Source: Candidatus Latescibacterota bacterium
Lineage (GTDB): Bacteria; Latescibacterota; UBA2968; SICM01
Assembly (NCBI GenBank): GCA_965217865.1
Contig: CBDCJO010000002.1
Location: 1,664,001 to 1,728,000 of the forward strand
Direction of reading: 5' to 3'
Length of the DNA: 64,000 bases
Below the pieces are notes generated by a model that had not been told where the DNA came from, ran no database searches, and saw nothing but the letters and a program-made list of their open reading frames with translations. The position numbers and the translations under genes were made by a program. Of the stretch, positions 12,351 to 64,000 are shown piece by piece; the first letter of the stretch is position 1, and the number at the start of each line of letters is the position of its first letter.

Positions 12351-12429
12351 TCAGGGGGCCAGGGAATGGCAGTAGCAGTGGCAGGGTAAGCAGGAGAGGA
12401 AAGTGCAAGGTGCAAATGGACTATAGACG

Positions 12430-13967: not shown

Positions 13968-13973
13968 TGTCTG

Positions 13974-14000
13974 TTAGCACTCTCCGCACGAGAGTGCTAA
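13974..14000. promoter_or_regulatory. CIRCE element (HrcA operator)
   Basis: Perfect TTAGCACTC-N9-GAGTGCTAA upstream of groES. Confidence 0.97.
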
Positions 14001-14079
14001 CAACATACGCCAACTCGAATATTATTAGTGGATTAGTGTTCAAAAACCCTCGGTCGGTTATTCAAAAAGGAGGAGTGTG

Positions 14080-16069
<1,990 letters not shown>

Positions 16070-16106
16070 AACGATTATGGGACGGTGTTAGCCGTCTTTC
16101 TAGAAG

Positions 16107-43861: not shown

Positions 43862-43864
43862 CCG

Positions 43865-45382: not shown

Positions 45383-45935
45383 CTTTAAGGTCTGGATCAT
45401 CGGAATCCTGATTCTCGGCGTCGGGATTTTTTACGTCCAGCGATCCAAGGACCGCTACACCACTTCGATCGAGGGAATCTTTACCGAAGATTCCAAGAAG
45501 GTCGAAAAAATTCTAATCCACAAGGGTGACGACAGCATCGAGTTGGTGAAAGATGACGATTCCTGGCGGATTGCGGGAAACGATACCCTGGTCATCCGAG
45601 AAAACCAGGTGGACGATTTCTTTACCCAGGTGCTGGGGGCCAAACGGACTACTGTTATGACGGAGAAGCCGGATAAATGGACCACATACTCCGTGGATGA
45701 TTCTTCCGGGACACACCTCACAGTCGTTGCCGAAAACGGCCAGACGGTCGGGGATTACGTATTCGGGGGATCACGAAGCGACTGGGGTAAAAGTTATGTC
45801 AGGATCAGGCCGGATCCTAATGTGTATCTGACCGATAATGTCATCTATCAATTGAGCACAAGCGTCACGTACTGGGGTGAGAAACCCAAACCGGTTGAAG
45901 AATCGTGGGATTCTTCAGGCGTTGAAACGGAATAA
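45375..45935 (+). CDS. DUF4340-like membrane-anchored periplasmic protein
   Basis: N-terminal TM, beta-rich body, YVR near the C-terminus; usual position after GldG. Confidence 0.65.
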   Translation: MGNFKVWIIGILILGVGIFYVQRSKDRYTTSIEGIFTEDSKKVEKILIHKGDDSIELVKDDDSWRIAGNDTLVIRENQVDDFFTQVLGAKRTTVMTEKPDKWTTYSVDDSSGTHLTVVAENGQTVGDYVFGGSRSDWGKSYVRIRPDPNVYLTDNVIYQLSTSVTYWGEKPKPVEESWDSSGVETE

Positions 45936-47478: not shown

Positions 47479-49806
47479 ATGCATTTCAAGTTCAGTCTTA
47501 AGAACTTGACATTTCTCCACTTGTTATTGTTCCTAAGCATCGGTTTTCAAGACGGGCACCCCTCAGATTGGCCAAGCTGGCGGGGGCTGGATCAAAACGG
47601 TGTTTCGACCGAGTCCGGGCTCATCTCGGAATGGTCTGTGAAAGGGAAAAACCTGATCTGGAAAGCGAATTTCGTGGGCCGATCCACCCCGATCGTGCTT
47701 GACGGCCGGGTCTATGTGATGGGACGGGCGGGCCGTGAGATTACGAAGCAGGAGCGGGTTGCCTGCTTCGACGCTCGGACCGGGAACATGGTATGGGAAC
47801 ATCGATTCAACGTTTTTCATACCACGATCCCTTTTAACCGTGTGGGATGGGCGAGTCCGGTCGGTGATCCGGAAACCGGAAATATCTATGCCCACGGGGT
47901 TGGGGGCCCGTTGATTTGTTTCAACCGGGATGGCGATATTCTCTGGTCACGATCCCTGACCGAAGAATTCGGGAGAATTTCCGGGTATGGGGGCCGCGTC
48001 CATACACCGGTCGTGGACGAGGATCTCGTGATCATCAGTTTTCTCAATTCGAGCTGGGGTGACCAGATCGTTCCCAAGCATCGCTACTATGCCTTCGATA
48101 AGCTGAGCGGTGAAGTGGTCTGGGTCTCTGCACCGGGAGGAAGACCCCTGGATACCACCTACTCCACCCCCGTGGTCAAGGAAATTCAGGGACAGAGGCT
48201 CCTGATCGGGGGGAACGCGGACGGATGGATCTATGCGGTTAAAGTCAGGACAGGGAAAAAGGTCTGGGGATTTCAGCTCAGCAAACGAGGCATCAACTCC
48301 TCGGTGGTCGTGGTGGGGACAAGGGTTTATGCCTCTCACAGCGAAGAGAATATCGACAACACGGCGATGGGGCGCGTGGTCTGCATCGACGGGACGGGTA
48401 CCGGCGATATCACGAAGACAAACGAGGTCTGGCGATACGACGAATGTCTTGCGGGATATACCTCACCCGTAGCGCACGGTGGACGGGTTTATTTCGTTGA
48501 CAATTCGGCAAACATTCACTGTCTGGATGCCGGGACGGGTGAGTTAGACTGGAAATACAATCTCGGAACGGTGGGCAAGGGGTCCCCTGTCTGGGCGGAT
48601 GGCAAGCTCTACGCGCCGGAGGTCAACGGAACCATCCACATCGTTCAACCTGTCGAAAAAGGGGCCCAGAGGCTGGATGTTGAAAAGATCCGAGCCAGTG
48701 GAGGGCACCTGGCCGAGATATTTGGATCACCGGCGATCGGATATCGTAGAATCTACTTTGCCACCGAAGAAGGCCTATATTGTCTGGGGGACAAAGACAC
48801 CGAATTTTCCGCATCTTCAAAGGCAAGTTTGAAACCTGCCCCTTCCAAACCGGAATCTCCCGGGGATTCCGCAGATCGAGTTTCCGCCCCCGCTCACTTT
48901 CACATCGTACCTTCCGAAGTATCCGTTGCTCCTGGAAAATCGGTGGTTTTCCGTTGTCGAGCATTCGACAGGAATGGACAATTTCTGAAGGAAGTGACCC
49001 CGACGTGGTCGTTCGTTGGATTATCCGGGATGATCTCTCGCGATGGTATTTTTATCCCGGACCGGAGCGGTCCACAGGCCGGGACGCTGGTTGCCCGCCT
49101 GGGAGGGATAGAAGGCCGAGCCCGGGTCCGGGTGGTTCCGGATATCCCCTGGTCGGAGGACTTCGAGAGGATCCCGGTTGGCCAAAATCCCGCTCACTGG
49201 ATCGGAGCTTCTAAGAAATTTGTCGTGGCGCAGAAGGATGGGAATCGTGTGCTCGTTAAATCGCCCGTAAAAAGGGGATTAAATCGTTCGAATGTCTATC
49301 TGGGACCATCGACCTTGAAAGAATACACGATCCAGGCGGATCTGATGGGGAGCCGACATCGACGGAACCAGTCGGATATGGGGTTGATCGCAAACCGTTA
49401 TACCCTCGATATGATGGGGAACCATCAGCGACTTCAGGTTCGCTCCTGGGCTTCGGATTTACGGATGGCGAAAACCGTCGGTTTCCGTTGGGAGCCGGAT
49501 ATCTGGTATACCATGAAGATGCGTGTGGATATCCTGGATGGAAAAGGGGTCATCAGGGGAAAGGTATGGCGAAGAGGGGATCCGGAACCAGGGGTCTGGT
49601 CGATCTCCGCGGAGGATCCGCTGCCCAACCTGGAAGGAAGCCCGGGGCTTTATGGATACTCGGCAGCGGAAATTTGGTATGATAATGTGAAAGTCTGGGG
49701 TCAGGGGTCGGAAGTCAGGGGTCAGGGGTCGGAAGTCAGGGGTCAGGGGTCGGAAGTCAGGGGTCAGGGGTCGGAAGTCAGGGGTCAGGGAAAAGAAAAA
49801 CCGTGA
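47479..49806 (+). CDS. Exported PQQ-like beta-propeller protein with C-terminal Ig-like and lectin-like beta domains
   Basis: Signal peptide, WPSWRG, repeated D..TG...W blades, Pro/Ser linker, beta-sandwich ending PGLYG...DNVKV; repeat-derived (GQGSEVR)4 tail. Confidence 0.85.
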   Translation: MHFKFSLKNLTFLHLLLFLSIGFQDGHPSDWPSWRGLDQNGVSTESGLISEWSVKGKNLIWKANFVGRSTPIVLDGRVYVMGRAGREITKQERVACFDARTGNMVWEHRFNVFHTTIPFNRVGWASPVGDPETGNIYAHGVGGPLICFNRDGDILWSRSLTEEFGRISGYGGRVHTPVVDEDLVIISFLNSSWGDQIVPKHRYYAFDKLSGEVVWVSAPGGRPLDTTYSTPVVKEIQGQRLLIGGNADGWIYAVKVRTGKKVWGFQLSKRGINSSVVVVGTRVYASHSEENIDNTAMGRVVCIDGTGTGDITKTNEVWRYDECLAGYTSPVAHGGRVYFVDNSANIHCLDAGTGELDWKYNLGTVGKGSPVWADGKLYAPEVNGTIHIVQPVEKGAQRLDVEKIRASGGHLAEIFGSPAIGYRRIYFATEEGLYCLGDKDTEFSASSKASLKPAPSKPESPGDSADRVSAPAHFHIVPSEVSVAPGKSVVFRCRAFDRNGQFLKEVTPTWSFVGLSGMISRDGIFIPDRSGPQAGTLVARLGGIEGRARVRVVPDIPWSEDFERIPVGQNPAHWIGASKKFVVAQKDGNRVLVKSPVKRGLNRSNVYLGPSTLKEYTIQADLMGSRHRRNQSDMGLIANRYTLDMMGNHQRLQVRSWASDLRMAKTVGFRWEPDIWYTMKMRVDILDGKGVIRGKVWRRGDPEPGVWSISAEDPLPNLEGSPGLYGYSAAEIWYDNVKVWGQGSEVRGQGSEVRGQGSEVRGQGSEVRGQGKEKP

Positions 49807-49945
49807 AACATGAGATGGAACACGTGAGACGGGGGAAAGCAGTAGCAGGTGGCAGTGGAAGGAAAGGCAAAGGCGGGGGCCGGAGGTCCGGGGTCAGGGA
49901 TCAGAGGTCGGAGGGAATTGAATATTGAATATTGAATATTGCAAG
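49691..49945 (+). repeat. Perfect 21-bp tandem repeat x4 plus composite polar array
   Basis: (GGGGTCAGGGGTCGGAAGTCA)4 at 49697-49780, then GTGAGAC, GCAGTG, GGTCAGG and (ttgaata)3 blocks. Confidence 0.92.
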
Positions 49946-51370
49946 AGAAGAGCGTTCAGCATCTTCGGGATTGTTTTGTTTTACATCGTTTCGATGGCCT
50001 CTGCCCAAGAAACGGCCATGTGGGGGATTACGCCTTCACGAAACATGGTCTCGGACGAAAAAGGCCTGCCCGAATTCTGGGACGCGGAGACGGGCATGAA
50101 TATCAAATGGACGGCAGCCCTGGGTTCTCAGACCTACGCAGGTCCGGTGGTCATTGGGGGCAAGGTGTTCGTCGGATCTAACAATCAGAGGGAGCGAAAT
50201 CGGAAGCACAAAGGGGACCGGGGGATCGTGATGGCGTTCCAGGAGGCGGACGGCAAGTTCCTCTGGCAGGCGACACATACCAAACTGCCGGCGGGGCGGG
50301 TCAACGACTGGCCGCAACAGGGGGTCTGTTCAACGCCGTATATCGAAGGAGACCGGCTCTACTATGTTTCGAACCGTTGTGAAGTCATTTGTCTGGACAC
50401 AGAGGGTTTTCTGGACGGAGAGAACGACGGCCTATTCGTTCATGAGGCTGACACCAGCGACATCGATGCGGATGTCATCTGGAAGCTGGATATGATCGAT
50501 GCGTTCAACGTGTTCCCTCACAACCTGGCCACCTCATCTCCGGTGGGGGTGGGCGATCTGCTATTTCTGGTCACAGGGAACGGTGTGGACGAAGGACACG
50601 TCCATATCCCAACGCCGTTTGCTCCGAGTTTTATTGCCGTCCATAAGAAAACCGGCAAAGTTGCCTGGGAGGACGCCTCCCCGGGGGAGAAGATCCTTCA
50701 CGGGCAATGGTCCAATCCCAGTTATGGGGTGATCAACGGCAGACCGCAGGTGATTTTCCCCGGCGGTGACGGCTGGATCTATTCTCTGGAACCGGAGACC
50801 GGGAAGCTCATCTGGAAGTTTGACTGCAACCCTAAGGATTCGGTTTGGGAACTCGGCGGCCGTGGGACTCGAAACAATATTGTTGCGACTCCGGTCGTTT
50901 ACGAAGACAGGGTCTACATCGGTGTCGGGCAGGACCCGGAACATGGCGAGGGGAAAGGACACCTCTGGGCCCTCGACGCAACGGGCGAGGGGGATATCAC
51001 CGACTCGGGTGTGATCTGGCACGTGGGGGGCGAGGATTTCAATCGGACCCTGTCCACGGTTGCGATCCACGAGGGACTGCTTTACACCGCAGACCTGAGC
51101 GGTTTCGTCTATTGTCTGGACGCTCGGACCGGGGAACGCTACTGGACCTATGATTCGTTTGCTGCGATATGGGGCTCCCCGCTCGTAGCGGATGGGAAGG
51201 TCTATATCGGCGATGAGGATGGAGATGTTGCGGTCCTTAAGGCAGGAAAGACATTCAAGTTGATCTATGAGGTCAACATGGGAAGCTCGGTTTATACCTC
51301 GCCGGTCGCAAAGGACGGTGTGCTTTATATCGGAAGTCGAAATACCCTTTTCGCGATTGCAACGAAATAG
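49925..51370 (+). CDS. Exported PQQ-like beta-propeller protein
   Basis: Signal peptide ending ASA|[16 protein letters not shown], repeated TG...W blades, [15 protein letters not shown]. Confidence 0.87.
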
Positions 51371-51379
51371 GACCCCGTT

Positions 51380-52459
51380 GTGGAGCATAAACTCTCGAAA
51401 AAAGTGGAAGAGGCGGAGAGGCGGCTCGATGCCCACGTTCGCGAGATGGTTGCGTGGCATTTCAATCCAGAGACGGGTTCCCCGTTTTGGCTGGAATTTG
51501 CGGAGAATCTGAAATTTGACCCGAGAAAGGAGATCAGGGGGTTTGGGGACTTGAAGGTTCTGGGCCATTTTCAGGATGAATGGCTTCGCGGGGGACCGGT
51601 CAGACGATGGGTGCCACGGGCTTATACCGGGGAACCCGTATATGTTTTTGAAACCGGGGGTTCGACGGGGATCCCGAAATGTCGCATCAACATTCGCGAT
51701 TTTCAGACCGATTATGAGATGTTCAGCCAGACGCTTTCCCAGGATGGCTTTCCGGAAGGGGCGGACTGGTTGATGTTGGGACCGACAGGTCCACGAAGAC
51801 TTCGGCTTGCCGTAGAATACCTTGCCCAACTTCGGGGTGGAATCTGTTTTATGGTGGATCTGGATCCAAGATGGGTCCATAAGCTTATCAAATATGGGAG
51901 GCATCAGGAGCTGGATGCCTATAAGGATCACGTCATCAACCAGGGCCTCCAGATTTTGAGGGCCCACGATAATGTTCGATGCCTGTTCACCACCCCAAGA
52001 CTGCTCGAGGCGCTTTGCGAAAAGATCTCGCTGCCGACCGTCGGTATCCAGGGTGTCTTTTGTGGAGGGACGGAGATGGATGCCCAGTTTCACCGGTTTG
52101 CGAGGGAGGAGTTGATTCCAGGTATTGAATTCCTTCCCGTGTACGGAAATACACTGATGGGACTGGCGTATGCCAAGCCGCATGATCCGGCGGATGGTTA
52201 TGCGGTAACCTACTATCCGCAATCTCCCCGCGCCGTGATCGAGCTCGTGAATCCTCGAGATCCCGATGAGACGGTCGGGTATGGTGAGACGGGCCGGGTC
52301 TGTCTGACCACGCTGACCCGGGAATTTTTCATGCCGAGGTTTTTAGAGCGGGACGAAGCGGAACGGGCGGAACCGATCGATCCCTATCCCTGGGATGGGG
52401 TTCGTAACCTTCGGCTCCTCTCGGAGCTTCAGGAGTCGGTCGTGGTGGGGGTGTATTAA
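51380..52459 (+). CDS. EhpF/GriC-like atypical adenylate-forming enzyme (aryl-carboxylate activating subunit)
   Basis: WHFNPETGSPFWL, FDP, P-loop ETGGSTGIPK, PTGP, DLDPRWV, TTP, GGTE, YGNT, VGYGETG, ERD follow the motif series I recall for EhpF/GriC. Confidence 0.75.
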   Translation: MEHKLSKKVEEAERRLDAHVREMVAWHFNPETGSPFWLEFAENLKFDPRKEIRGFGDLKVLGHFQDEWLRGGPVRRWVPRAYTGEPVYVFETGGSTGIPKCRINIRDFQTDYEMFSQTLSQDGFPEGADWLMLGPTGPRRLRLAVEYLAQLRGGICFMVDLDPRWVHKLIKYGRHQELDAYKDHVINQGLQILRAHDNVRCLFTTPRLLEALCEKISLPTVGIQGVFCGGTEMDAQFHRFAREELIPGIEFLPVYGNTLMGLAYAKPHDPADGYAVTYYPQSPRAVIELVNPRDPDETVGYGETGRVCLTTLTREFFMPRFLERDEAERAEPIDPYPWDGVRNLRLLSELQESVVVGVY

Positions 52460-52692
52460 TGCAAATGGAAAATGAAAAGTGCAAAAGTTCAGGGGTCGGA
52501 GGTCAGGGGTCAGGGAAAAAAAGTAGCAGTAGCAGTGGCAGTAGCAGAAAAAGCAGGGATCGGAGGTCAGGGGTCAGGCGAAAAAAGTAGCAGTGGCGGT
52601 AGCAGGAAAGGCACGGATTGGAGGTCGGAAGTCGGAGGTTAGGGTCAGGGAATGAAAATGCAAAGTGCCCAGTGCAAGATGGAAAGTGCAAA
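52460..52692 (+). repeat. Nested composite array A-B-C-B-C-B-A
   Basis: A=AAATGGA/AAGTGCA, B=GGTCAGG/GGTCGGA, C=GTAGCA/GTGGCA; fills the whole spacer. Confidence 0.88.
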
Positions 52693-54258
52693 ATGATCCA
52701 CATTCCCGTATTGAGGTCCGGTCGGCCGTATCGGAGTCTAAAACTCCTGGACGTACGGCACGTCCAATCCGGGGAGGTTCTCGCCCATCTCAGTCAGGCA
52801 AACCGGGGGCTGATCTCGAAGGACCTGTCGGCCGCGGCATTCCATAGAAAGGGCCTCGAGGCATTTTCCGTTTCAGAACTCCTGACAATTTGCCGAAAGG
52901 CCGCCCGATTTTTCGCCGAGGAATCTTTGCAGCTTGACGGGACTTTACAGTCGGCTGAAGATTACGTGAAACAGGTCTCGGGCTCCACGGGCATGCCCGA
53001 GGCCTTGTGTCGAAAAAATATGGATAAGATCCGTTCGGTTCTGGAGAGGATGGAGGAGATCCTCGACGGGTTGACACGCGGACTGGATCTTTCGATTCTC
53101 GATTCCGGAAGGGGCATCCAGGATGGACGGCCCCTGAGTTTTTTCCCCCAGACAGATGCGCTGGGAGCCGTGCTTCCAAACAATTCCCCCGGTGTGCATT
53201 CCCTCTGGCTTCCTTCGATTCCCCTAAAGATTCCGCTTGTGCTCAAACCCGGAAGCGAGGAGCCCTGGACCCCCTTTCGTATCTCCCAGGCCTTTATCGC
53301 AGGGGGCTGTCCGCCTGAAGCATTCGGATATTATCCAACGGACTATTCAGGGGCGAGTGAGGTTCTGCTTCGCTGCGGACGCTCCATGTTGTTTGGAGGA
53401 GGGTCGACGGTCACCCCGTGGAAGGCGGATCCGAGGATTCAGATTCACGGGCCGGGTCGCAGCAAGATCATCCTGGGAAAGGACAGGGTCCACAATTGGG
53501 GAAATTATATGGAGGTCATGCTGGGATCCATCGTGGACAATGGGGGGAGGTCCTGCATCAATGCCTCAGGGATCTGGGTTCCGGAAAAGGGCCGGGAGAT
53601 CGCAGAGGTTCTTGCGGACCGTCTTTCGGAAATCGAGCCAAAGCCGCTTGACGACCCTGAGGCGAAACTTGCCGCTTTTTCGAATCCGAAGATGGCCAGA
53701 CGGATTTCTGAAACCATCGATCAGCAGTTGAAGGCCCCGGGAGCAAAAGAAATATCAGCAAGTGGCAGGAGCGAGAGGGTGGTTGAATTCGATGGGTGCA
53801 CTTTCCTCCGCCCGACGGTCATCTGGTGCGAAGATACGGAGCACCCTCTGGCGAACACGGAGTTTTTATTTCCGTTCGTGAGCGTGGTCCAGGTCCCCCA
53901 GGAGGAGATTCTGAAACGGATCGGGCCCACACTGACGGCCACTGCGATCACCGAGGATGAAGATTTTATCCGTGAGTTACTGGGATCTCAGGATGTGGAC
54001 CGTCTCAATTTAGGGGCGATATCCACAAACCATGTATCCTGGGACCAGCCCCACGAAGGGAATCTATTTGAGCATCTCTATCGACAAAGGGCTTTGCAAA
54101 TGCAGGGGCAGTGGCAGTGGCAGGAAAGCAAAGGCAGGGGCCAGAGGTCGGAGGTCAGAGGAAAGAAAAATCGTGAGACGTCAGACGTGAAACGTAAGAT
54201 CGCAAAGTCAGTAGCAGTGGCAGTGGCAGGAAATCAAGTCAGGGAATTGAAGAATTGA
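52693..54258 (+). CDS. ALDH-superfamily acyl reductase (GriD/LuxC-like)
   Basis: VLPNNSPG, LKPGSEEPWTP, FGG, HGPGRSK, catalytic Cys in GGRSCINAS, EFLFPF; last ~50 aa repeat-derived. Confidence 0.8.
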   Translation: MIHIPVLRSGRPYRSLKLLDVRHVQSGEVLAHLSQANRGLISKDLSAAAFHRKGLEAFSVSELLTICRKAARFFAEESLQLDGTLQSAEDYVKQVSGSTGMPEALCRKNMDKIRSVLERMEEILDGLTRGLDLSILDSGRGIQDGRPLSFFPQTDALGAVLPNNSPGVHSLWLPSIPLKIPLVLKPGSEEPWTPFRISQAFIAGGCPPEAFGYYPTDYSGASEVLLRCGRSMLFGGGSTVTPWKADPRIQIHGPGRSKIILGKDRVHNWGNYMEVMLGSIVDNGGRSCINASGIWVPEKGREIAEVLADRLSEIEPKPLDDPEAKLAAFSNPKMARRISETIDQQLKAPGAKEISASGRSERVVEFDGCTFLRPTVIWCEDTEHPLANTEFLFPFVSVVQVPQEEILKRIGPTLTATAITEDEDFIRELLGSQDVDRLNLGAISTNHVSWDQPHEGNLFEHLYRQRALQMQGQWQWQESKGRGQRSEVRGKKNRETSDVKRKIAKSVAVAVAGNQVRELKN

Positions 54259-54271
54259 TTCGTGCGTTATT

Positions 54272-55408
54272 ATGAAACCTTTTGAATTCTCCCATGGACA
54301 AAGGGTGGTTTTCGGTGAGGATTCGCTTGATCAGTTGGGGGGCCTGGCGGGGGAACCCGGAGATCACGTGTTAATCGTCACGGATCCGGGGATTGTAGGT
54401 GCCGGTATCGTGGAAAGGGCCGTCACCACGCTGGAGAAGGCCTCTCTGATACCGATCGTTTTTAAAGACGTTCGGGAAAATCCGACCACCCGAAACGTCG
54501 ATGAAGGGGTCCGGTTCGCGAAGGATCAGGAGAAGATCGATTTGATCATCGGGCTGGGGGGTGGGAGCGCGATGGACTGCGCCAAGGGAATCAACTTTGT
54601 GTTCACCAACGGCGGCCGGATGGAGGACTACTGGGGGGCGGACAAGGCGTCACTTCCGATGCTGCCATCGATCGGGATTCCCACGACGGCCGGGACCGGG
54701 AGCGAAGCCCAATCGTTCGCGTTGATCGCTCAGGAAAAGTCCCGTCAGAAAATGGCCTGCGGGGATCGGAAAGCCCGGTTTCGAACCGCGGTCCTGGATC
54801 CATCCCTGGTCAGATCTGCGCCCGAACACGTGGCTGCGGCTTCGGGGATGGATGCGATCTCGCACGCGGTCGAGAGTTATGTCAGCACAAAAAGGAATCC
54901 CTTTTCGCAAATGCTGGCTCGGGAATCGTGGAGGATCCTGGAGGGGAGCTTCGGGGAATTTTTGTCCGATCGGTCGAATCGCAAAGCGTGCAGCCAGATG
55001 CTTCTCGGTTCCCATCTGGCCGGAGCTTCCATCGAAAACTCAATGCTTGGGGCCGCGCACGCCTGTGCGAATCCTCTGACAGCCCGGTATGAGATACCTC
55101 ACGGTGTCGCAGTCGGAATGATGCTTCCGGGTGTGATTCAATTCAACAGTCAGGCTGAAGACCCCGAGGTCGGTGATCTCTATCTGGAATTACAGAATAT
55201 AAGGTCCAGAGACGGCTTATCCCTGGTGGATCAAATTCGAGAATTGAAGGCTGCGGCCGCCCAACCCGAAAGCCTGAGAGAACTCCGAGTCCGGGAAGCG
55301 GATCTGCCTGATCTAGCTCGGGAAGCGGCCGTTCAGGGGACCGGGAAATTCAATCCCCGACCGTTGGATGAATCGATACTGCTGGGTCTTTATGAGGACG
55401 CATATTGA
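54272..55408 (+). CDS. Iron-containing alcohol dehydrogenase
   Basis: GGGSAMD, PTTAGTGSE, DAISHAVES, AHACA, HG metal ligands, NPR. Confidence 0.93.
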   Translation: MKPFEFSHGQRVVFGEDSLDQLGGLAGEPGDHVLIVTDPGIVGAGIVERAVTTLEKASLIPIVFKDVRENPTTRNVDEGVRFAKDQEKIDLIIGLGGGSAMDCAKGINFVFTNGGRMEDYWGADKASLPMLPSIGIPTTAGTGSEAQSFALIAQEKSRQKMACGDRKARFRTAVLDPSLVRSAPEHVAAASGMDAISHAVESYVSTKRNPFSQMLARESWRILEGSFGEFLSDRSNRKACSQMLLGSHLAGASIENSMLGAAHACANPLTARYEIPHGVAVGMMLPGVIQFNSQAEDPEVGDLYLELQNIRSRDGLSLVDQIRELKAAAAQPESLRELRVREADLPDLAREAAVQGTGKFNPRPLDESILLGLYEDAY

Positions 55409-55495
55409 CGATGGACAGTGGTCAGAACGTCAGACGTGAAACGTGAAACGGAAATCGGGGGTCGGAGGTCAGAGGTCGGGGGATAATTAAATCGA

Positions 55496-56626
55496 GTGTC
55501 ACAAATGAATATTCCACTTGCGTGGGTTCTGATTATTCTCCTATTCCACAGCCAGGTCCTTTATGCGCAGGACAACTGGATCAGTTTTCGGGGGGATCGT
55601 CATCTGACCGGGGTCGCCTCGGGGAGCTTTCCCGAAAATCCCCAGCTTCTCTGGACATTTCAGACCGAAGACGGTATCGAATCAACGGCAGCCATCTATT
55701 CCGGAACGGTCTACTCCTGTTCACTGGACGGATACCTGTATGCCATCGACCTTCAAGATGGGAAATTGGTTTGGAAGTATAAGGCGGGGAATGAGATCAA
55801 GTCCTCACCTTCCGTCTTTAATGGGACGGTCTTCTTCGGAGATGAGGCCGGAAAACTCCACGCGGTCGATGCTGGCACGGGAAAATCACGCTGGATTTTT
55901 CGCACGGGTTCAGGGATTATTTCATCCGCAAACTTCGTTTCAGGACACGTCCTGTTTGGGTCCTACGATCAACATCTTTACTGTCTTTCGGGTGAGGGAA
56001 CTCTGATCTGGAAATTCGAGACAGAGGGTTATCTTCACGGGACGCCGGCGGTTGTGGATGACCGCATGGGAAAGGGGGAGGCGACTCTGGTTGCGGGTTG
56101 CGACGGATTTTTGCGGGTCATCGGGATCCGCGACGGCGCGGAGAAGAAAAAGATCTCCCTTGGTTCCTACGTAGGGGCCAGCCCCGCTGTTTTTAACGGT
56201 ATGGCGTTTGTGGGCAACTTTGACAATGAGGTTCTGGGAATCGACCTCGATGAGGCGGCGATCCGGTGGCGCTACGAACCAGAAAAAAACAAATTCCCGT
56301 TTTACGCTTCGGCCGCAGTGACGAATGGCTGGCTTATTGTGGGTGGGCGGGATAAAAGGGTTCATGCACTTGACCCGCAGACCGGTCAACTGCGATGGAT
56401 ATCAGAACTAAAATCACGGATCGACTCGTCTCCGGTGATTCTGGGTGACCGGGTATTTTTCGGAACGTCGGGGGGGGGTATTTACGGGCTGGATCTCAAC
56501 ACCGGGGAACCGGTCTGGCATTTTATCACGGGTTCACCCATGGTTGCCTCTCCGTGCATCGCAGGCGGAAGGCTCATCGTTGGGTCGGTTGATGGAGTCC
56601 TTTATTGTTTTGGAGCGAAATCGTGA
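55496..56626 (+). CDS. Exported PQQ-like (BamB-type) beta-propeller protein
   Basis: Signal peptide YA|Q, W.SFRGD..LTG, about eight SSP...V.FG...G.L.A.D...G...W blades. Confidence 0.87.
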   Translation: MSQMNIPLAWVLIILLFHSQVLYAQDNWISFRGDRHLTGVASGSFPENPQLLWTFQTEDGIESTAAIYSGTVYSCSLDGYLYAIDLQDGKLVWKYKAGNEIKSSPSVFNGTVFFGDEAGKLHAVDAGTGKSRWIFRTGSGIISSANFVSGHVLFGSYDQHLYCLSGEGTLIWKFETEGYLHGTPAVVDDRMGKGEATLVAGCDGFLRVIGIRDGAEKKKISLGSYVGASPAVFNGMAFVGNFDNEVLGIDLDEAAIRWRYEPEKNKFPFYASAAVTNGWLIVGGRDKRVHALDPQTGQLRWISELKSRIDSSPVILGDRVFFGTSGGGIYGLDLNTGEPVWHFITGSPMVASPCIAGGRLIVGSVDGVLYCFGAKS

Positions 56627-56630
56627 GGTT

Positions 56631-57983
56631 ATGGTCAATCGTTTGAAGGCAACTTCGCCGGAACCCGCCACCACTCACGAAACACTAGGCGAGACAGGGG
56701 TGGGGAGCGTCTTTGTCTCGAACTACCCGCCATATTCATTCTGGGACGGGGAAACCGTCCCGAAGGCGATCGAGGGTCCGAGTAAGCCTTCGGCCATTGA
56801 TTCGTCCCTGGGACTATACCTGCACATTCCATTCTGTAGAAAACGATGTAAGTTCTGTTATTTCAGGGTATACACAGACAAGAACAGTTCCGAGATCCGG
56901 GTTTACACGGATGCCCTGGCTCGGGAGGTTGAAATTTTCAGTGAGCAGCCCGGGATTTCGGATCGTCCCCTGAGGTTCGTCTATTTCGGGGGAGGCACCC
57001 CTTCCTATATCAGCGCAAGACATCTCAGGGGTCTGGTGGGCCGGCTCAGGGGAGCCCTTCCGTGGGATAAGGCTGAAGAGATCGCTTTCGAATGCGAACC
57101 GGGCACATTGACGAAGACCAAATTGGAGGCCATTAAAGATATCGGCGTTACGAGGCTGAGCCTGGGGATCGAAAACCTGAATGATTCTATTTTAAAGGAG
57201 AATGGGAGGGCCCATCTATCCCAAGAGGTTTTTGAAGTCTCTCCGTGGATCAGGGATCTGGAATTCGATCAGGTGAATGTGGATCTGATCGCCGGAATGG
57301 CGGGGGAGCAATGGTCAAGCTGGCGTGATACTGTGCGGAAGACGATCGACCTTGACCCGGACAGCGTGACGATCTATCAGATGGAATTGCCGTATAACAC
57401 CGTCTATTCAAAGGCCCTTTTCTCCGGGGAAGGAGAAGTCCAGGGTTTTGCCGACTGGGATACCAAGCGGGAATGGCATGCCTATGCGTTCGATGAACTA
57501 TCCAACGCGGGATATGAGATTTCCAGCGCCTACACGATGGTCAAAAAAGGAAGGCCGGGTCATTTTGTTTACCGGGATGCGGTCTGGGGTGGAAACGACA
57601 TGATCGGGGCCGGGGTCGCTTCATTTTCCTATATCGGCGGCCTTCACTTACAGAATTATTCCGGTTGGGATGAGTATTTGAGCGCCCTTGGCGAGAATCG
57701 ATTGCCTCTGGATCGGGCTTTCGAAACCACAGAGATGGAACGCCTCACACGGGAGATGATCCTCCAGTTGAAACTCGGGAGGCTCGAGTCCGAGTATTTT
57801 TCCCGGAAGTTTCGGTCGGATATTTTTGAAGTCTTCGGACCGGCATTTCGGAAGCTTCAGGCGGAAGATATGCTGACGTTTGAAGACGGTGTGGTTAATC
57901 TTACGCGGAAAGGGTTGCTTCAAGTGGATCAGCTTTTGCCTGAGTTCTACGATCCAAAGTATCAAAAGGCCAGGTATACGTAG
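56631..57983 (+). CDS. HemN/class C-like radical SAM enzyme
   Basis: SNYPP, LYLHIPFCRKRCKFC (CxxxCxxC), YFGGGTPS, ECEP, RLSLG, NVDLIAG, HemN-type C-terminal LTRKG. Confidence 0.88.
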   Translation: MVNRLKATSPEPATTHETLGETGVGSVFVSNYPPYSFWDGETVPKAIEGPSKPSAIDSSLGLYLHIPFCRKRCKFCYFRVYTDKNSSEIRVYTDALAREVEIFSEQPGISDRPLRFVYFGGGTPSYISARHLRGLVGRLRGALPWDKAEEIAFECEPGTLTKTKLEAIKDIGVTRLSLGIENLNDSILKENGRAHLSQEVFEVSPWIRDLEFDQVNVDLIAGMAGEQWSSWRDTVRKTIDLDPDSVTIYQMELPYNTVYSKALFSGEGEVQGFADWDTKREWHAYAFDELSNAGYEISSAYTMVKKGRPGHFVYRDAVWGGNDMIGAGVASFSYIGGLHLQNYSGWDEYLSALGENRLPLDRAFETTEMERLTREMILQLKLGRLESEYFSRKFRSDIFEVFGPAFRKLQAEDMLTFEDGVVNLTRKGLLQVDQLLPEFYDPKYQKARYT

Positions 57984-57994
57984 CGAAGAGATGC

Positions 57995-58178
57995 CAGAGG
58001 AAATTGAAGATTGAAGAATGAAAATTGGAGATTCAGCTGAGCCAGTAGCAGTTGGCAGTAGCAGGAAAAAGCGAAGGCAATAACGGAGTAACGAGGAGAG
58101 CGTGGGAAGGTGAAGATTGAATATCGATAATTTAAGATTGAAGAGAGTTGTTCAAATATTCAATATTCAATATTCAAT
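57995..58178 (+). repeat. Composite array plus TTGAAGA...ATATTCA inverted-arm mini-element
   Basis: tgaagattgaatatcgataatttaagattgaagagagttgttcaaatattcaatattcaatattcaat at 58111-58178. Confidence 0.78.
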
Positions 58179-58196
58179 CAAGTTGGGGAGCGCTTT

Positions 58197-59480
58197 ATGA
58201 GATGGTGTAATCGGGTTTGCTTGCCAATCGGGATTTTTATGGTGTCAAGTCTGACTTTTGGGTTGAAGCCCGGGTGTGCCTCCGACCAGGATTCGACGGA
58301 TTGGGCGCAATGGCTCGGGCCAAATCGAAATGGTGTCTCCGACGAGACGGGGCTGCTCAGGAGTTGGCCGGATGCTGGACCGGGTGTTCTCTGGCGGATC
58401 CGGGGAGGCGAGGGGTTTTCGGGCATCTCGATCTCTCAAGGCCTGGCTTATACCATGTATGGCCGAGGTGACGATGAGTTTGTGGTTTGCCTGAATGCAT
58501 CGACCGGGGATGAGGTCTGGCGTTTTCGAAGCGACTCCAATTTATTCGAGCCTCAGGGGGGGAACGGTCCTCGTTCAACCCCGGCGGTGGATGGGGACCG
58601 GGTCTTTGTCCTGAGTGCAAACGGCAAGCTCTATGGTTTGAACGCCAGGACCGGGGCAAAGTTATGGGAGCACGATTTCGTGAAGCGATTCGGGAGCAGA
58701 CGGCCGAGATGGGGTTTCTGTTCGTCGCCGCTGGTGGAGGGAGATCTCGTTATGATTGAAGCGGGGGGAACCCGTGGAAATTCCCTCCTGGCCTTCGATA
58801 AGGCCAATGGACGGCTTGTCTGGTCCTCCCAGAGAGACAAGCCCGGATATTCATCGCCGGTCGCGATCACGGCGGCCGGGGTTCGGCAGGTCCTTTTCTT
58901 CACCGCAGGGGGTCTTGTCTCGGTTTCACCGAAGGACGGAAGGCCGTTCTGGCGTTATGCCTGGTCGACAAGCTATGACGTCAATGCGGCCACCCCCATA
59001 TTTATCCCTCCTGACAAAGTTTTTATCTCCTCGGGTTATGGAACGGGTGCAGCGGTTTTACAAATAAAAGAGGCCGGGGCAGGAATCCGGGTGGCGCAGG
59101 TCTGGAAAAACCGTGAGATGAAGAACCATTTTCCATCCTCGGTTCTGAACGGGAACTACCTCTACGGATTCGATAATGCGATTTTAAAATGCATCGATGC
59201 CCGAACCGGAGAAGCCGTGTGGCGATATCGAGGATTTGGAAAAGGGACCGCGATTTTCGCGGATGGTCATCTGATTGTCCTGGGAGAGCAGGGGAACCTG
59301 GGGCTGGTCGAAGCGACACCTTCGGGAATTCACGTTAAGGCGGAAGCCCGGGCCATGAATGGTAGGTGCTGGACGGTTCCCACACTGGCGGGAGGCCGTC
59401 TCTATGTGCGGAACGAAAAGGAGATTGCCTGTCTGGATTTAAAAGCAGAGGTCAGGGGTCGGAGTTCAGGGGTAAGGTAA
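58197..59480 (+). CDS. Exported PQQ-like beta-propeller protein
   Basis: DWAQWLGPNRNG, GPRSTP, SSPLV, GYSSP, repeated TG...W blades, WTVPTLAGGRLYVR. Confidence 0.87.
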   Translation: MRWCNRVCLPIGIFMVSSLTFGLKPGCASDQDSTDWAQWLGPNRNGVSDETGLLRSWPDAGPGVLWRIRGGEGFSGISISQGLAYTMYGRGDDEFVVCLNASTGDEVWRFRSDSNLFEPQGGNGPRSTPAVDGDRVFVLSANGKLYGLNARTGAKLWEHDFVKRFGSRRPRWGFCSSPLVEGDLVMIEAGGTRGNSLLAFDKANGRLVWSSQRDKPGYSSPVAITAAGVRQVLFFTAGGLVSVSPKDGRPFWRYAWSTSYDVNAATPIFIPPDKVFISSGYGTGAAVLQIKEAGAGIRVAQVWKNREMKNHFPSSVLNGNYLYGFDNAILKCIDARTGEAVWRYRGFGKGTAIFADGHLIVLGEQGNLGLVEATPSGIHVKAEARAMNGRCWTVPTLAGGRLYVRNEKEIACLDLKAEVRGRSSGVR

Positions 59481-59569
59481 AAGAAAAACCGAGAAAGGTC
59501 AGACGTCAGACGTGAGACGGGGAGAAGCAGTAACAGTGGCAGGTGGCAGTGGCAGGAAAGGAAAGAATT

Positions 59570-60742
59570 ATGTTGAAATTACAAATGTCGATTCTCGGAT
59601 TGATAGGGATTTCCCTTATTCTTCCGGGTCCCGGTCTGAGCCAACCGATCCGGGGAGAGGTCCCGCAGAATGTGGAGGATATATTCCTACCAGAGGTCGA
59701 AGGGGTCACAGTGGAGACCTGGGTTGAGAACCTTGAGATCCCCTGGTCGCTTGTTTTTCTCCCAAACGGCGACGCCCTAGTGGCTGAGCGGCCCGGCCGA
59801 ATCCAGAGGATACCCCAAGGCGAAAACAGTCCAGAGCTTTACGCGGAGATCGAGGTCGCCGCAAGGGGGGACGCGGGTCTGATGGGAATCGCCCTGCATC
59901 CGGATTTCGACAAACAGCCTTATCTGTATGCCATGACCAGTTATGCAGACGGGGAAAAGCTCTACACACGTATCATTCGTCTGAAACACGAGGGGGATGA
60001 GGGACTTTTCGACCGCATCATATTCGGGCCTATACCGGGCCACAAATATCACATAGGTGGCAGGATTGGTTTCGGACCGGACGGGATGCTCTATGTGGGC
60101 ACGGGGGATCTCTTCCAGCCAAACACAGCACAGGATCTGGAATTACTGACGGGAAAGATCCTTCGAATCACCCCGGAGGGGGATATTCCGGAGGACAATC
60201 CCTTCCCGGGTTCGGCAATCTATTCGTATGGCAATCGTGTTGTTCAGGGATTGGCCTGGCATCCGGGGACCGGCGACCTTTTCAATACGGAACACGGTCC
60301 GTCGGGCGAACTCCCCGGGGCAAAGTACCGCGACGAGATCAACGTGATTGAAAAGGGGGGGAACTACGGTTGGCCGATCGTCGTTGGTGCGCCGGGAATG
60401 CCGGACTACCGGGATCCGATCGTCATGTGGAAAAAAGCGGCTGTTCCCCCCGCCGGAATGACGTTTTTCCAAGGGGATCTCTTCGTCGCCACACTGGGAA
60501 GCCAGGCCTTGATCCGGATCGGTTTCAAAGATGACGTCGAAGGCTATGAAATTGCGAAGATCGAAAGATGGTTTGCGCAGGACTATGGGAAAGGGACTTA
60601 TGGAAGGTTACGGGATGTTGCGGTCGGGCCGGACGGTAATCTCTACGTACTCACGAGTAACAGAGACGGTCGGGAGAAGCTCCGTCCAAATGATGATAAA
60701 ATCCTCCGTCTGAAGTTCAAGGACATTGAAACGGGAAACTGA
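59570..60742 (+). CDS. PQQ-dependent aldose/sorbosone dehydrogenase (GSDH, YliI-like)
   Basis: LEIPWSL.FLPNG, ERPGR, GLMGIALHPDF, HIGGRIGFGPDG, GKILR, EHGP, DEIN, GNYGWP, GRLRDV. Confidence 0.88.
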   Translation: MLKLQMSILGLIGISLILPGPGLSQPIRGEVPQNVEDIFLPEVEGVTVETWVENLEIPWSLVFLPNGDALVAERPGRIQRIPQGENSPELYAEIEVAARGDAGLMGIALHPDFDKQPYLYAMTSYADGEKLYTRIIRLKHEGDEGLFDRIIFGPIPGHKYHIGGRIGFGPDGMLYVGTGDLFQPNTAQDLELLTGKILRITPEGDIPEDNPFPGSAIYSYGNRVVQGLAWHPGTGDLFNTEHGPSGELPGAKYRDEINVIEKGGNYGWPIVVGAPGMPDYRDPIVMWKKAAVPPAGMTFFQGDLFVATLGSQALIRIGFKDDVEGYEIAKIERWFAQDYGKGTYGRLRDVAVGPDGNLYVLTSNRDGREKLRPNDDKILRLKFKDIETGN

Positions 60743-60754
60743 GGAGAAAGTTAT

Positions 60755-61640
60755 ATGGCTACAGATTTGCCGACAAGGGTCCTCGGGTGTACGGGATTGG
60801 AGGTGACACAGCTCGGGTTCGGGGGGGTGGAGGTCGGGAATTTCAACAGGGACATCGGCGATGATCAGGCGGGAAGGGTGCTCAATGCTGTCCTCGATTC
60901 GGGCATCAATTTTCTAGACACCGCCCCGGACTACGGCCTGAGCGAGGAGCGGATCGGCGCGACCGTCAGCCATCGCCGCGATTCATTCTACCTTGCGACC
61001 AAGTGCGGCTGCAACATCGACCCGTACGGGGTCGAGCAGGAACCCAAGCACCTGTGGACAGGCGATCTGCTTCGCAAGAACATCGAACAGAGCCTGAGGC
61101 GTATGAAGACGGATTATGTTGATCTACTTCAGATGCATAACCCCTCAGTGGAGGCAGTTGAAAGTGGGGGGCTCGTAGAAGCCCTCAATGAGATCCGAGC
61201 GTCCGGGAAAACCCGTTTCATCGGTGTTTCTTCCACGGCTCCGCATCTTTTGGAATTCGTCCGGATGGGTGTTTTCGACACATTCCAGATCCCGTACTCC
61301 GCCCTGGAACGCAGGCACGAAGGGATGATCCAGGAGGCTGCTGATGCAGGCGCAGGTATCATCATTCGAGGCGGCATTGCCCGGGGCCACCTGGGGGGGG
61401 GACCGCTGGGCCAAATGCGATGGTGCCCAGCTGACGGACCTGCTCGACGGGATGAGCCGGTACGAATTCGTGCTGCGTTTCACGCTCACTCATCCCGCCT
61501 GCCACACCACCATCGTGGGCACGGCCGACCTGGAACATCTCCAATCTAATAAAGCCGCCGCTCAGGCGGGTCCTCTTCCACCGGATGTGTACGAGCAGGC
61601 AAAGGAGCGGTTGGATCAAATCGGGGAGAGACCGGAGTGA
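60755..61640 (+). pseudogene. Aldo/keto reductase frameshifted at a G9 tract (61393-61401)
   Basis: LDTAPDYG, ATKCG, DLLQMH and FIGVS in the first frame; LRFTL.HP...TTIVGT...GPLP in the second. G8 would restore a single ORF. Confidence 0.78.
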
Positions 61641-61820
61641 AAATGGAAAGTGCAAAATGCAGAATGGAAAAGTCAGGTGCCAGGGGTCGGAGGTCAGAGG
61701 TCAGGGAAAAGATAAACCGTGAGATGTGAGACGGAAAAAAGCAGTAGCAGTGGCAGTAGCAGGAAAAGCAAAGGCAGGGATCGGAGAAAAAGATAATCAA
61801 TGTGGCAGTCGTAGCAGGTA
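61638..61820 (+). repeat. Composite polar array (A-B-GTGAGAC-C)
   Basis: aaatggaaagtgcaaaatgcagaatggaaaagtcagg...gcagtagcagtggcagtagcagg. Confidence 0.85.
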
Positions 61821-61872
61821 TGGGAACCCTCCCAACACGGCAACGGCAAAGATTCTGCTGAAGGAGAAAAAA

Positions 61873-62727
61873 ATGGAAAAGCGGGCTTATGGTCGAAACG
61901 GGGATGAGCTGTCGATCGTCGGTTTTGGTGGAATTGTGGTCATGAAAACGGAGCCGGACGAGGCCAGCCGGCTGGTCGGGGAGGCGGTCGAGCGGGGGGT
62001 GAACTACTTCGACGTGGCTCCCGCGTATGGAAACGCCGAGTCGTGTCTGGGGCCAGCGCTGGAACCCTATCGGAAGGATGTGTTCCTTGCGTGCAAGACC
62101 GGAAAGAGGGATAAGGCCGGGGCTGAGGAACAGCTCCACAACTCCCTCAAGCTGCTCCGCACGGACCACTTTGATCTATACCAGCTTCACGCCATGACCA
62201 CCCAGGAGGACTTCGACCAGGCCGTTGGGCCCGGGGGAGCCCTCGAAGCCTTTGTCGAGGCCCGGGATAGGGGGAAGATTCGCCATATCGGGTTCTCCGC
62301 GCATTCCGTTGAGATCGCACTGGCCCTGCTGGACCAGTTCGCGTTCGATTCCGTCCTGTTTCCGATCAACTGGGTGGGCTATTTTGAAGCGGATTTCGGA
62401 CCTCAGGTCGTGGCGAGGGCTTCCGAAAAGGGGGCCAGCCGGCTTGCGTTGAAGGCGATGGCCTACGGCCTTCGGGAAGAGGGGGCGCCCAAGCGATATT
62501 CCAATTGCTGGTACGAGCCGATCGACGATCCGGAACTTGCCTCCCTGGCTCTGCGCTTCAGCCTCTCCCAACCGATTACGGCGGTTATTCCGCCGGGTGA
62601 TCCGGGACTATTCAAGATGGCACTGGATCTGGCCGAAAATTTTACGCCGATTACGCACGAGGAGACCGAGGAACTTCGTATAAGAGCGGAGGGGGGAAGA
62701 CCTTTGTTTAAGCTTTCGGCTGCATGA
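61873..62727 (+). CDS. Aldo/keto reductase
   Basis: FDVAPAYG, LACKT, DLYQLH, HIGFSAH; SD AAGGAG. Confidence 0.9.
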   Translation: MEKRAYGRNGDELSIVGFGGIVVMKTEPDEASRLVGEAVERGVNYFDVAPAYGNAESCLGPALEPYRKDVFLACKTGKRDKAGAEEQLHNSLKLLRTDHFDLYQLHAMTTQEDFDQAVGPGGALEAFVEARDRGKIRHIGFSAHSVEIALALLDQFAFDSVLFPINWVGYFEADFGPQVVARASEKGASRLALKAMAYGLREEGAPKRYSNCWYEPIDDPELASLALRFSLSQPITAVIPPGDPGLFKMALDLAENFTPITHEETEELRIRAEGGRPLFKLSAA

Positions 62728-62935
62728 AAATGGAAAATGAAAAAGTCAGTGGTCAGAGGTCGGAGGTCAGAGGTCAGGGAAAAGAAAAACCGTCAGTCGT
62801 AAGACGGAAGATCGAGAATCGGGTGTCAGGGGTCAGAAGTAGGGGAGGAAAGTGCAGAATGGAGAAGGCAAAAGTCAGGGGTCAGAGGTCGGGGATGGAA
62901 ATTGCAAAGTGAAAAATAAAAAAATGGAAATTACA
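62725..62935 (+). repeat. Nested composite polar array (A-B...B-A)
   Basis: Starts aaaatggaaaatgaaaaagtcag, ends aattgcaaagtgaaaaataaaaaaatggaaattac. Confidence 0.8.
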
Positions 62936-62958
62936 AACTGTTAGGCCAGGAGGGGTGT

Positions 62959-63921
62959 GTGTTTTATCGAAAGTTCGGAGACACGGACTTAGAAGTGTCC
63001 GAAATATGCTTTGGTCCGATGCGCTTCTCGGCCAAGGAGCAGGGGGATGACGAGAAGTCACGTACAGGGAAACGAGCTCTGGAGAGGGCTCTCGAACGAG
63101 GGGTCAATTTCATTCACTCCAGCTACGAATACGGTACCCGATGGGCAGTGGGCGAGGTTCTGAAGGACCACCCGAAGCGGAAAGAACTTCTTCATATCAT
63201 CAAGGTACCGGTTCCGGACTTCGACGATGGGGGGAAGTTCGATTCCGGCAAGTTCCGGTTACGGGTGGAAGAGGCCCTTCGGGATCTTCACACGGATCGG
63301 ATCGCAGTCCTTCAGCACCTGCAAAGGGCCAACCCGAACGCGGATGACCATCGGATTCCGAATATTGAGGCTGTTCACGGGCCCATGATGGAGGTCTTCG
63401 AGAGATTAAAAGAAGAGGGAAAGGTCTGTTACCTGACGACGTTTCCTTATTCGCCCGGATTTGCCTCAGCGGCTATGAAAACCGGAACTTTCAAAGGGAT
63501 GGTGGCTTACTACAACCTGATCGAGATAGAGATGGCGGAGTTTTTCTCAGGCATGCAAGCGAAAGGCCAGGGGTTCTTCTGCATTCGGCCCTTGATGGCC
63601 GGCTTGCTCACGGATCGACGGGCCGACCGGAGTCGGTTGTCAGAAGGTGATCGCATGCTGGCAGAAAGTTGGGGGCCGGCCTATGAAAGGTTGGAGATTT
63701 TAAAATCTGCTTTTGACGGGGACATCGGAGGGTGGACCCGGTTTGCGATCCAGTTTGCTTTGATACATCCGATCGTCACAAGTCTTATCGTGGGGCTGAA
63801 TACCCCTGAGCAGGTGGACGAGGTCCTGGATGCGGCCGATGGGAAATACCCGGATCTAAAGGTGTTCCACCAGGCCATGGAGGTGTATAGGACGCACGGG
63901 ATGGTTTCAGAGAATGGGTAA
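62959..63921 (+). CDS. Aldo/keto reductase (divergent)
   Basis: VSEICFG, HSSYEYG, IIKV, YNL, PLMAGLLT, HPIVTSLIVGLNTPEQV. Confidence 0.82.
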   Translation: MFYRKFGDTDLEVSEICFGPMRFSAKEQGDDEKSRTGKRALERALERGVNFIHSSYEYGTRWAVGEVLKDHPKRKELLHIIKVPVPDFDDGGKFDSGKFRLRVEEALRDLHTDRIAVLQHLQRANPNADDHRIPNIEAVHGPMMEVFERLKEEGKVCYLTTFPYSPGFASAAMKTGTFKGMVAYYNLIEIEMAEFFSGMQAKGQGFFCIRPLMAGLLTDRRADRSRLSEGDRMLAESWGPAYERLEILKSAFDGDIGGWTRFAIQFALIHPIVTSLIVGLNTPEQVDEVLDAADGKYPDLKVFHQAMEVYRTHGMVSENG

Positions 63922-63943
63922 GAGGAGGAAGGGGAGAAAAGCC

Positions 63944-64000
63944 ATGGAAAAGATTCGAATCGGTGTGGTGGGATCCGGTGGGATGGCTGCAAGCAGGATG
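63944..64000 (+). CDS. Probable Gfo/Idh/MocA oxidoreductase, partial (N-terminus only)
   Basis: MEKIRIGVVGSGGMA Rossmann start after SD; only 19 codons visible. Confidence 0.55.
   Translation, partial: MEKIRIGVVGSGGMAASRM

Follow-up and report, generated by a model that had tools for sequence, protein, structure and literature searches.

The supply systems for pyrroloquinoline quinone (PQQ) and mycofactocin pair a compact biosynthetic core with an expanded family of client proteins dispersed over the genome. Two-protein reduction of a carboxylic acid to its aldehyde is represented by GriC/GriD of grixazone, EhpF/EhpG of D-alanylgriseoluteic acid (PDB 3L2K, 3HGU) and ThnN/ThnO of thienamycin. 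According to the available part of one report, GriC adenylates and GriD reduces 3-amino-4-hydroxybenzoic acid (3,4-AHBA) (PMC10179220), and the available part of another describes the gene context of ehp (PMC3175449). Here we examine a locus of a Candidatus Latescibacterota bacterium in which a reductase pair of this type lies among PQQ-like beta-propellers, at 47479..59480 of a stretch of 64,000 nucleotides (the window; G000:C2:1664001-1728000, genome size 6.4 Mb). The eight genes of this block make up the first half of a system of about 17 genes that are inherited together, and the core of that system goes with an expanded, dispersed family of putative client propellers, the organisation of a cofactor-supply system. 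We propose, with confidence a little short of even, that the system would make a glycosylated, halogenated, reduced small molecule, delivered to the periplasm by an ATP-binding cassette (ABC) exporter as a ligand or cofactor for secreted propellers of the BamB fold.

All eight open reading frames (ORFs) of the block lie on the + strand, as the initial annotation had described. In window coordinates, and with domain calls from Pfam/NCBIfam, they are:

47479..49806, + strand: B1, signal peptide, PQQ-like propeller, immunoglobulin (Ig)-like domain and LamG/3-keto-disaccharide-hydrolase-like domain; PQQ_2
49925..51370, + strand: B2, 8-bladed propeller of the BamB fold; PQQ_2
51380..52459, + strand: F, truncated ANL adenylating enzyme of the EhpF/GriC/ThnN type; weak AMP-binding match
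52693..54258, + strand: G, reductase of the aldehyde dehydrogenase (ALDH) fold, EhpG/GriD/ThnO type; Aldedh
54272..55408, + strand: Fe-containing alcohol dehydrogenase (Fe-ADH), metal-ligand motifs intact
55496..56626, + strand: B3, PQQ-like propeller; PQQ_2
56631..57983, + strand: radical S-adenosylmethionine (SAM) enzyme (RS) of the HemN fold; Radical_SAM and HemN_C
58197..59480, + strand: B4, the copy within this operon of a dispersed propeller family whose occurrence follows the pathway; PQQ_2

These genes had been taken as self-contained, which does not hold. The system extends about 17 kb beyond the window end, and the halogenase, the family 4 glycosyltransferase (GT4) and the ABC exporter located there follow F from genome to genome as closely as the radical SAM enzyme does; an optional ligase and an optional TonB receptor also lie outside the window. 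In the coordinates of region L101 (G000:C2:1727000-1746999) the continuation reads:

915-1934, + strand: Gfo/Idh/MocA protein, starting at window 63914..64000
1931-4054, + strand: TonB receptor, optional
4051-4647, + strand: Rv2949c-like chorismate lyase, this genome only
4647-5945, + strand: PaaK-like ligase, optional
5978-7246, + strand: halogenase of the PltA/CndH type
7958-9413, + strand: sodium:solute symporter
9410-10717, + strand: GT4, containing YCGSCxxDN
10887-11357, + strand: small multi-transmembrane protein
11431-11934, + strand: 4HBT thioesterase
11984-12667, + strand: ABC ATPase
12628-16080, + strand: FtsX/MacB-type permease, 1150 aa
16103-17734, - strand: membrane-anchored B4 paralog (fifth propeller)

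That the block is a unit finds support in other genomes, where the F-linked genes are kept together across phyla. F has at least 8000 protein relatives, all GriC/EhpF-like proteins included, and 406 confirmed loci in a set of one genome per species; the best 80 of these 406 loci share 67-80% identity over at least six phyla (Poribacteria, KSB1, Latescibacterota, Calditrichia, Gemmatimonadota and Acidobacteriota). Two local layouts recur, B1-B2-F-G-ADH-B3-RS-B4 and F-G-GT4-ABC. B1, B2, F, G, ADH, B3 and RS are all present at 9 of the 80 loci, a set that includes many short contigs. Where 2.5 kb or more of sequence is available beyond F, G comes next in 64 of 69 related loci, and B2 adjoins B1 in 23/23 loci holding both. 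Among 11 regions from the class of the window's genome, six (G014, G012, G029, G027, G038 and G011) carry the whole run from F to the ABC genes, with single genes missing locally; two more stop at a region or contig edge and three are split. KSB1, Blastocatellia, Poribacteria and other Acidobacteriota have the same genes in rearranged blocks. Such gene order is far beyond chance. Sulfidibacter corallicola and Acanthopleuribacter pedis are cultured carriers; presence in Planctomycetota is an Atlas lead, with no direct search made.

Genome-wide profiling covered F, GT4, the ABC permease, radical SAM, halogenase, Fe-ADH and B4-type propellers in a fixed sample of 91 Acidobacteriota genomes, 25 with F and 66 without it (a hit at 35% in G070 was set aside as a distant F homolog in another context). 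The 25 F genomes carry GT4 in 25 cases, the ABC permease in 25, radical SAM in 24, halogenase in 23 and Fe-ADH in 23. The 66 genomes without F yielded one GT4 and one ABC match, both in G131, no radical SAM, no Fe-ADH, and no strong halogenase match (two weak ones at 39%). Two genomes of the sample are unpublished, G093 with F and G068 with a weak halogenase; without G093 the pattern is the same over 24 F genomes. Co-inheritance also holds in G088, G115, G129 and G047, in which the genes are widely separated along a single chromosome.

The propellers follow the same division. B4-type propellers (E<=1e-45) occur in 25/25 F genomes and in 1/66 of the others, at 2-15 matches per F genome, a lower bound since at most 19 candidates were scored. 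Over 41 genomes of the window's class they occur in 28/28 with F vs 0/13 without it, including 1/3 within one genus, and B2 was present in 5/5 genomes tested. To some extent this profile is trivial, since B4 itself belongs to the operon; what is not trivial is that the dispersed copies are missing as well. A control family, TIGR04528, occurs in 10/25 F genomes vs 6/66 others, and three of the four genomes above its cut-off lack F; these "empty quinoproteins" were rejected as clients, since their distribution does not follow that of F. In 29 regions around B4-type paralogs (G134, G041, G047) the paralog is a single copy in all but one, amid unrelated neighbourhoods. Some paralogs are free-standing (about 430 aa); others bear membrane helices at the N-terminus or a TPR region, or are joined to an enterochelin-esterase-like domain whose nucleophile serine is missing in 8/8 cases examined. 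One recurring fusion of about 800 aa joins a B4-type propeller, a small esterase-associated domain and a serine-less Fes-like esterase (L144, L145, L149, L151, L163, L167, L176, L177), and frames of about 800 aa recur in many genomes of the window's class. PQQ-like propeller candidates of both families are very numerous in G088, G115, G111 and G123, 77-119 with B4 and up to 165 with TIGR04528.

This distribution bears on a further explanation, that the product is an ordinary secreted halogenated secondary metabolite and the propellers are binding or self-protection proteins. The parts do resemble antibiotic tailoring enzymes, and in the available part of a preprint sponge-symbiont clusters of halogenase and AMP-ligase are classed as natural-product clusters (bioRxiv 10.64898/2026.08.03.742642). 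However, F is single-copy and 67-80% identical over the phyla named above, inheritance is near all-or-none even when the genes are scattered, unlike that of patchy antibiotic clusters, and a genome can hold 15 or more dispersed propellers. We regard this explanation as quite improbable.

The assignment of F and G to the EhpF/GriC-GriD type was upheld. F matches EhpF with E 1.3e-41 over F residues 19-359, and the concern that this 359-aa protein might lie nearer CoA ligases was not borne out: the best CoA ligase reached E 0.18 and the genome's own PaaK-like ligase E 6.2. An ordinary CoA ligase and LuxE were accordingly rejected as identities for F, given its EhpF-type match vs E>=0.18 for CoA ligases. 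F is without the C-terminal ANL subdomain, ends in GVY as do EhpF and the thn homolog, carries the P-loop FETGGSTGIPK, and is 31% identical to full-length EhpF and 35% to the thienamycin-cluster homolog. Plasmid homologs at 31-40% come from a Pantoea phenazine cluster, the S. cattleya pSCATT plasmid and "arylcarboxylate reductase" entries; we take the pSCATT homolog to belong to the thn cluster, the record being unannotated. In a tree of 16 rows, nine F orthologs form one clade (97/100 support) apart from EhpF and the others, with 68-80% identity within the clade and 31-37% to outsiders, whose long branches leave their mutual order open. G is 23-25% identical to EhpG and two other partners, with Cys288 and GPGxS aligned, and Cys288 and HGPG.S are kept in at least 95% of 75 homologs. 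Since G keeps Cys288 and its HGPGRS occupies the place of the Glu-containing ALDH motif, its predicted chemistry fits acyl transfer and reduction rather than oxidation.

The enzymes of the system are new members of known families. The radical SAM enzyme belongs to class C (CxxxCxxC, GGGTP, a HemN_C domain, resemblance to HemN and NocN), and it falls under every equivalog cut-off, with 178.5 vs 400 bits for HutW, 165 vs 325 for HemN and 142 vs 205 for HemW, and likewise for STM4012. Heme biosynthesis and heme degradation were rejected as roles for this gene on the same scores; two further HemN-like genes lie elsewhere in the genome. The halogenase is nearest to PDB 8ZOP, 3E1T, 5BUK and PltA (5DBJ). 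Its GxGxxG, catalytic Lys and WxWxIP are all kept in 15 homologs, and Lys78 aligns with a Lys of 8ZOP and lies adjacent to the Lys of CndH. Neither a carrier protein nor a flavin reductase was found in the mapped clusters; with no carrier protein, the halogenase tether would be CoA or the cysteine of G. GT4 retains the motifs of the donor site. The CxxC at its N-terminal end is unusual and does not vary among 32 aligned sequences. The folds closest to GT4 are MshA, GlgM, BshA and sucrose-phosphate synthase (SPS), small-acceptor enzymes, and its structure model (pLDDT 85) gives a generic GT4 fold only. The cluster holds no acyl carrier protein (ACP), ketosynthase or acyltransferase and, as first reported, no phz, gri, polyketide synthase/nonribosomal peptide synthetase (PKS/NRPS) or pqq core. 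PqqC-family proteins were found neither in this genome nor in four of five others, the latter search having no positive control.

B1 to B4 are putatively exported, a call that rests on inspection of their hydrophobic N-termini; a lipobox pattern occurs in 0/24 B1, 2/25 B2, 1/25 B3 and 3/51 B4-type sequences. The domain assignment of B1 draws partly on an Atlas lead (score 0.92). B2 is the most conserved propeller, 56-77% identical across phyla with invariant His/Asp-rich loops, and its structure model (pLDDT 76) gives a generic BamB fold with best matches at TM 0.58-0.60. A long open frame that had pointed to fusion of the B1 and B2 genes proved a shadow frame in the one locus read. B3 alone exceeds the Beta-prop_ACSF4 cut-off (206 vs 133 bits). 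The many invariant polar residues in the loops of B1, B2 and B3 suggest a defined ligand or partner. In the B4 type, by comparison of 52 propellers of less than 60% identity, most positions that are conserved for other than structural reasons hold aromatic residues (Tyr218 in 47/52, Trp392 in 42/52, and positions 74 and 172); these aromatic, non-acidic positions fit binding better than catalysis. PQQ dehydrogenase was rejected for the propellers (TIGR03075 at 32-87 vs 480 bits, and no conserved acidic pocket residue in the B4 type).

From family chemistry, F would adenylate a carboxylic acid, most likely an aromatic one; G would take the acyl group on Cys288 and release the aldehyde using NAD(P)H; and Fe-ADH would convert the aldehyde to the alcohol. 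The halogenase would act on a thioester-tethered ring, CoA- or enzyme-bound, the HemN-fold enzyme would add a methyl or methylene, GT4 would glycosylate, and the small membrane protein with the FtsX/MacB-type ABC would transfer the product to the periplasm. The profile suggests B1-B3 as dedicated handling proteins and the many B4-type paralogs as clients; the precursor may be made via the PaaK-like ligase or else enter through the TonB receptor and symporter. The initial annotation had offered two roles for the product, a cofactor or ligand for the propellers or an envelope component; the genome-wide profile lends support to the ligand or cofactor role. The more specific version, which we consider unlikely, is a new organic cofactor, halogenated and glycosylated, whose synthesis would need neither a carrier protein nor a peptide precursor; a type VII ABC system would export it, and it would be loaded into the large family of "BamB-like/PQQ-like" propellers found in Acidobacteriota, Latescibacterota, Poribacteria and probably PVC bacteria, which would form a new enzyme class. 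If true, thousands of mis-annotated periplasmic proteins would make up that class.

The source of the precursor was approached through the ligase and the receptor, searched for in 61 chosen genomes at thresholds of 1e-60 (five genomes) and 1e-85 (56 genomes). Neither was found in the 24 F-lacking genomes tested. The 25 F-bearing Acidobacteriota divide into three with both, five with the ligase only, 14 with the receptor only and three with neither, and in the window's class 5/8 F genomes tested carry both, which hints that the precursor might be made or taken up. An uptake-and-reduction route, catabolic or detoxifying, would bring an aromatic acid in through the receptor and symporter for reduction and conjugation, and TonB receptor, symporter, CoA ligase, thioesterase and reductases do lie in one run. 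A haloarchaeal F/G pair on a Halalkalicoccus jeotgali plasmid (L106) also sits behind a sodium:solute symporter, near penicillin acylase and amine oxidase genes, and is possibly a catabolic use of the family. We find this route very improbable: the chemistry, with an acid reduced at the expense of ATP, a halogenation and a radical SAM step, is anabolic, no receptor was detected in 8/25 F genomes, and the cluster is without ring-cleavage genes. The receptor exceeds the TonB-siderophore cut-off (239 vs 223.5 bits), and several propeller paralogs are fused to enterochelin-esterase-like domains, as might be expected of a new metallophore that leaves through the MacB-like ABC and returns through the receptor. 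But the receptor is optional, all eight esterase fusions examined lack the nucleophile serine, and no known chelator-forming enzyme is present, which makes a metallophore the least probable of the explanations weighed here.

Several observations weigh against the proposed ligand or cofactor. As ThnN/ThnO illustrate, a pair of this type need not use an aromatic acid, and the one chorismate lyase found is peculiar to this genome. Among the 52 diverse propellers no acidic position is conserved in the manner of the catalytic base or the Ca ligands of PQQ dehydrogenases, and in 80 ORFs CxxCH occurs in none; cytochrome c fusions, looked for in the same 80 ORFs, were likewise rejected. The window's genome has only seven such propellers, five of them inside the cluster. 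The complementarity of ligase and receptor is not significant (Fisher p=0.06, with two thresholds mixed), and no genome was found with the receptor and clients but without the pathway, unlike the case of PQQ scavengers. Kinship is not given for the 91 genomes, which therefore are not 91 independent observations. Finally, G131 (C88, C89; L186, L157) has a divergent CxxC-GT4, in which the motif is retained as CQNC, an ABC pair, and B3-like and B4-like propellers, with no match to F, radical SAM, halogenase or ADH. It is either a variant system or an incomplete bin, and it implies that GT4, ABC and propeller may form the actual core, with the reductase feeding into it.

G131 favours the main rival, an envelope glycolipid or glycoconjugate. 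Here F, G and ADH would supply an alcohol, GT4 would glycosylate it, the ABC exporter would place it in the envelope, and the propellers would dock there as on an anchor or lattice. No profile is tighter than that of GT4, ABC and B4-type propellers, which coincide in 26/91 genomes; the propeller face appears aromatic-lined and non-catalytic, B1 bears an Ig and lectin-like tail, and diverse cargo is attached to the propellers, TPR and serine-less esterase domains included. We nonetheless judge the glycolipid rather unlikely, since the lipid-chain genes looked for above (ACP, ketosynthase, acyltransferase) are missing from the cluster, F is of the EhpF type without a Cys near its C-terminus, many B4-type paralogs have no cargo, and GT4 is nearest to enzymes with small soluble acceptors.

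Other features of the locus stand outside the conserved block. The following insert belongs to this genome's copy only:

59543..63921, + strand: GSDH-type propeller and three aldo-keto reductases

Like the chorismate lyase, these four genes were found only in this copy. The first aldo-keto reductase (window 60755-61640) is frameshifted at a 9-G run near 61393, the other frame reading to a stop at 61640, either an assembly error or a slippage site. The chorismate lyase was rejected as a conserved starter, as it was not found in 11 regions of relatives, five regions of other phyla or 80 loci, all of them local regions and not whole genomes. In Poribacteria (L192; G042:C1), B4, a Gfo/Idh/MocA protein 50% identical to that of this genome, an aldo-keto reductase, PaaK and the halogenase occur together; given this grouping, the oxidoreductase insert may not be wholly accidental. 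Between the halogenase and the symporter (L101:7286-7700), a broken-looking low-GC gene for a 23S rRNA IVP (four-helix bundle) lies amid repeats, and upstream of the cluster (window 42211-45935) is a GldA/F/G-like ABC transporter with DUF4340, not conserved with it.

The spacers between the eight genes measure, in order, 118, 9, 233, 13, 87, 4 and 213 nt. They had been described as a few bases or repeat DNA; the long ones do hold short repeats, but these occur genome-wide, one motif having 282 copies in 63/65 100-kb bins of the genome. The repeats were therefore rejected as a cluster feature and are uninformative about the cluster specifically. Genome-wide repeats of the GGTCAG type are also translated as C-terminal tails of B1 (GQGSEVR x4) and G (window 49697-49806 and 54106-54258), with read-through of about 34 aa at the B1 end and about 50 aa at the G end; orthologs stop earlier.

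About one in four of the sampled Acidobacteriota genomes, and most genomes of the window's class, carry F. Its profile is a testable handle on propellers now labelled "BamB" or "PQQ-binding", which should depend on one pathway, and the predicted product should show a Cl/Br isotope pattern plus a sugar. If the proposal is true, a GriC/GriD-type reductase and a PltA-type halogenase would serve in a housekeeping-like role.

The assembly matches no characterised pathway in the literature searched, although the figure and supplements of one preprint may show the cluster. That preprint, as far as its available part goes, defines the "Halo_AMP" pseudoclass by a search rule (840 clusters, sponge symbionts; bioRxiv 10.64898/2026.08.03.742642). 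Its clusters resemble ours in a halogenase with a BagE/YtkN-like ligase, frequent PQQ-like domains, a TonB receptor, glycosyltransferase, thioesterase and radical SAM enzyme, and in their occurrence in Acidobacteriota, Latescibacterota and Poribacteria. The focus of that part is on a P450-bearing cluster, whereas the reductase pair, co-inheritance and function are not mentioned there; the class probably includes the present system, uncharacterised.

F and G differ from GriC/GriD, EhpF/EhpG and ThnN/ThnO, with which they share the adjacent ALDH-fold partner and the GVY end, in that F forms its own clade, lies outside phenazine, grixazone and carbapenem clusters and goes together with propellers, GT4 and an ABC exporter. 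They share with LuxE/LuxC the two-protein logic from acid to aldehyde. However, LuxE carries a C-terminal acyl-accepting Cys, whereas the last 25 residues of F hold no Cys and neither protein has a Pfam match to LuxE or LuxC. The propellers recall BamB of the BAM complex in their 8-bladed fold, BamB giving the best structural matches of the B2 model, but they are 17-20% identical to it, score 50-132 bits against the TIGR03300 cut-off of 285, mostly have no lipobox, and in the B4 type were undetected in 65/66 F-lacking Acidobacteriota searched; the score and the lipobox led us to reject BamB as their identity. From the PQQ and mycofactocin systems the locus differs in having no peptide precursor, no SPASM enzyme and no PqqC found, putative clients without PQQ-dehydrogenase catalytic residues, and no scavenger genomes found. 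It resembles them in its compact co-inherited core, its optional TonB receptor and the PQQ-type propeller fold that its putative clients share.

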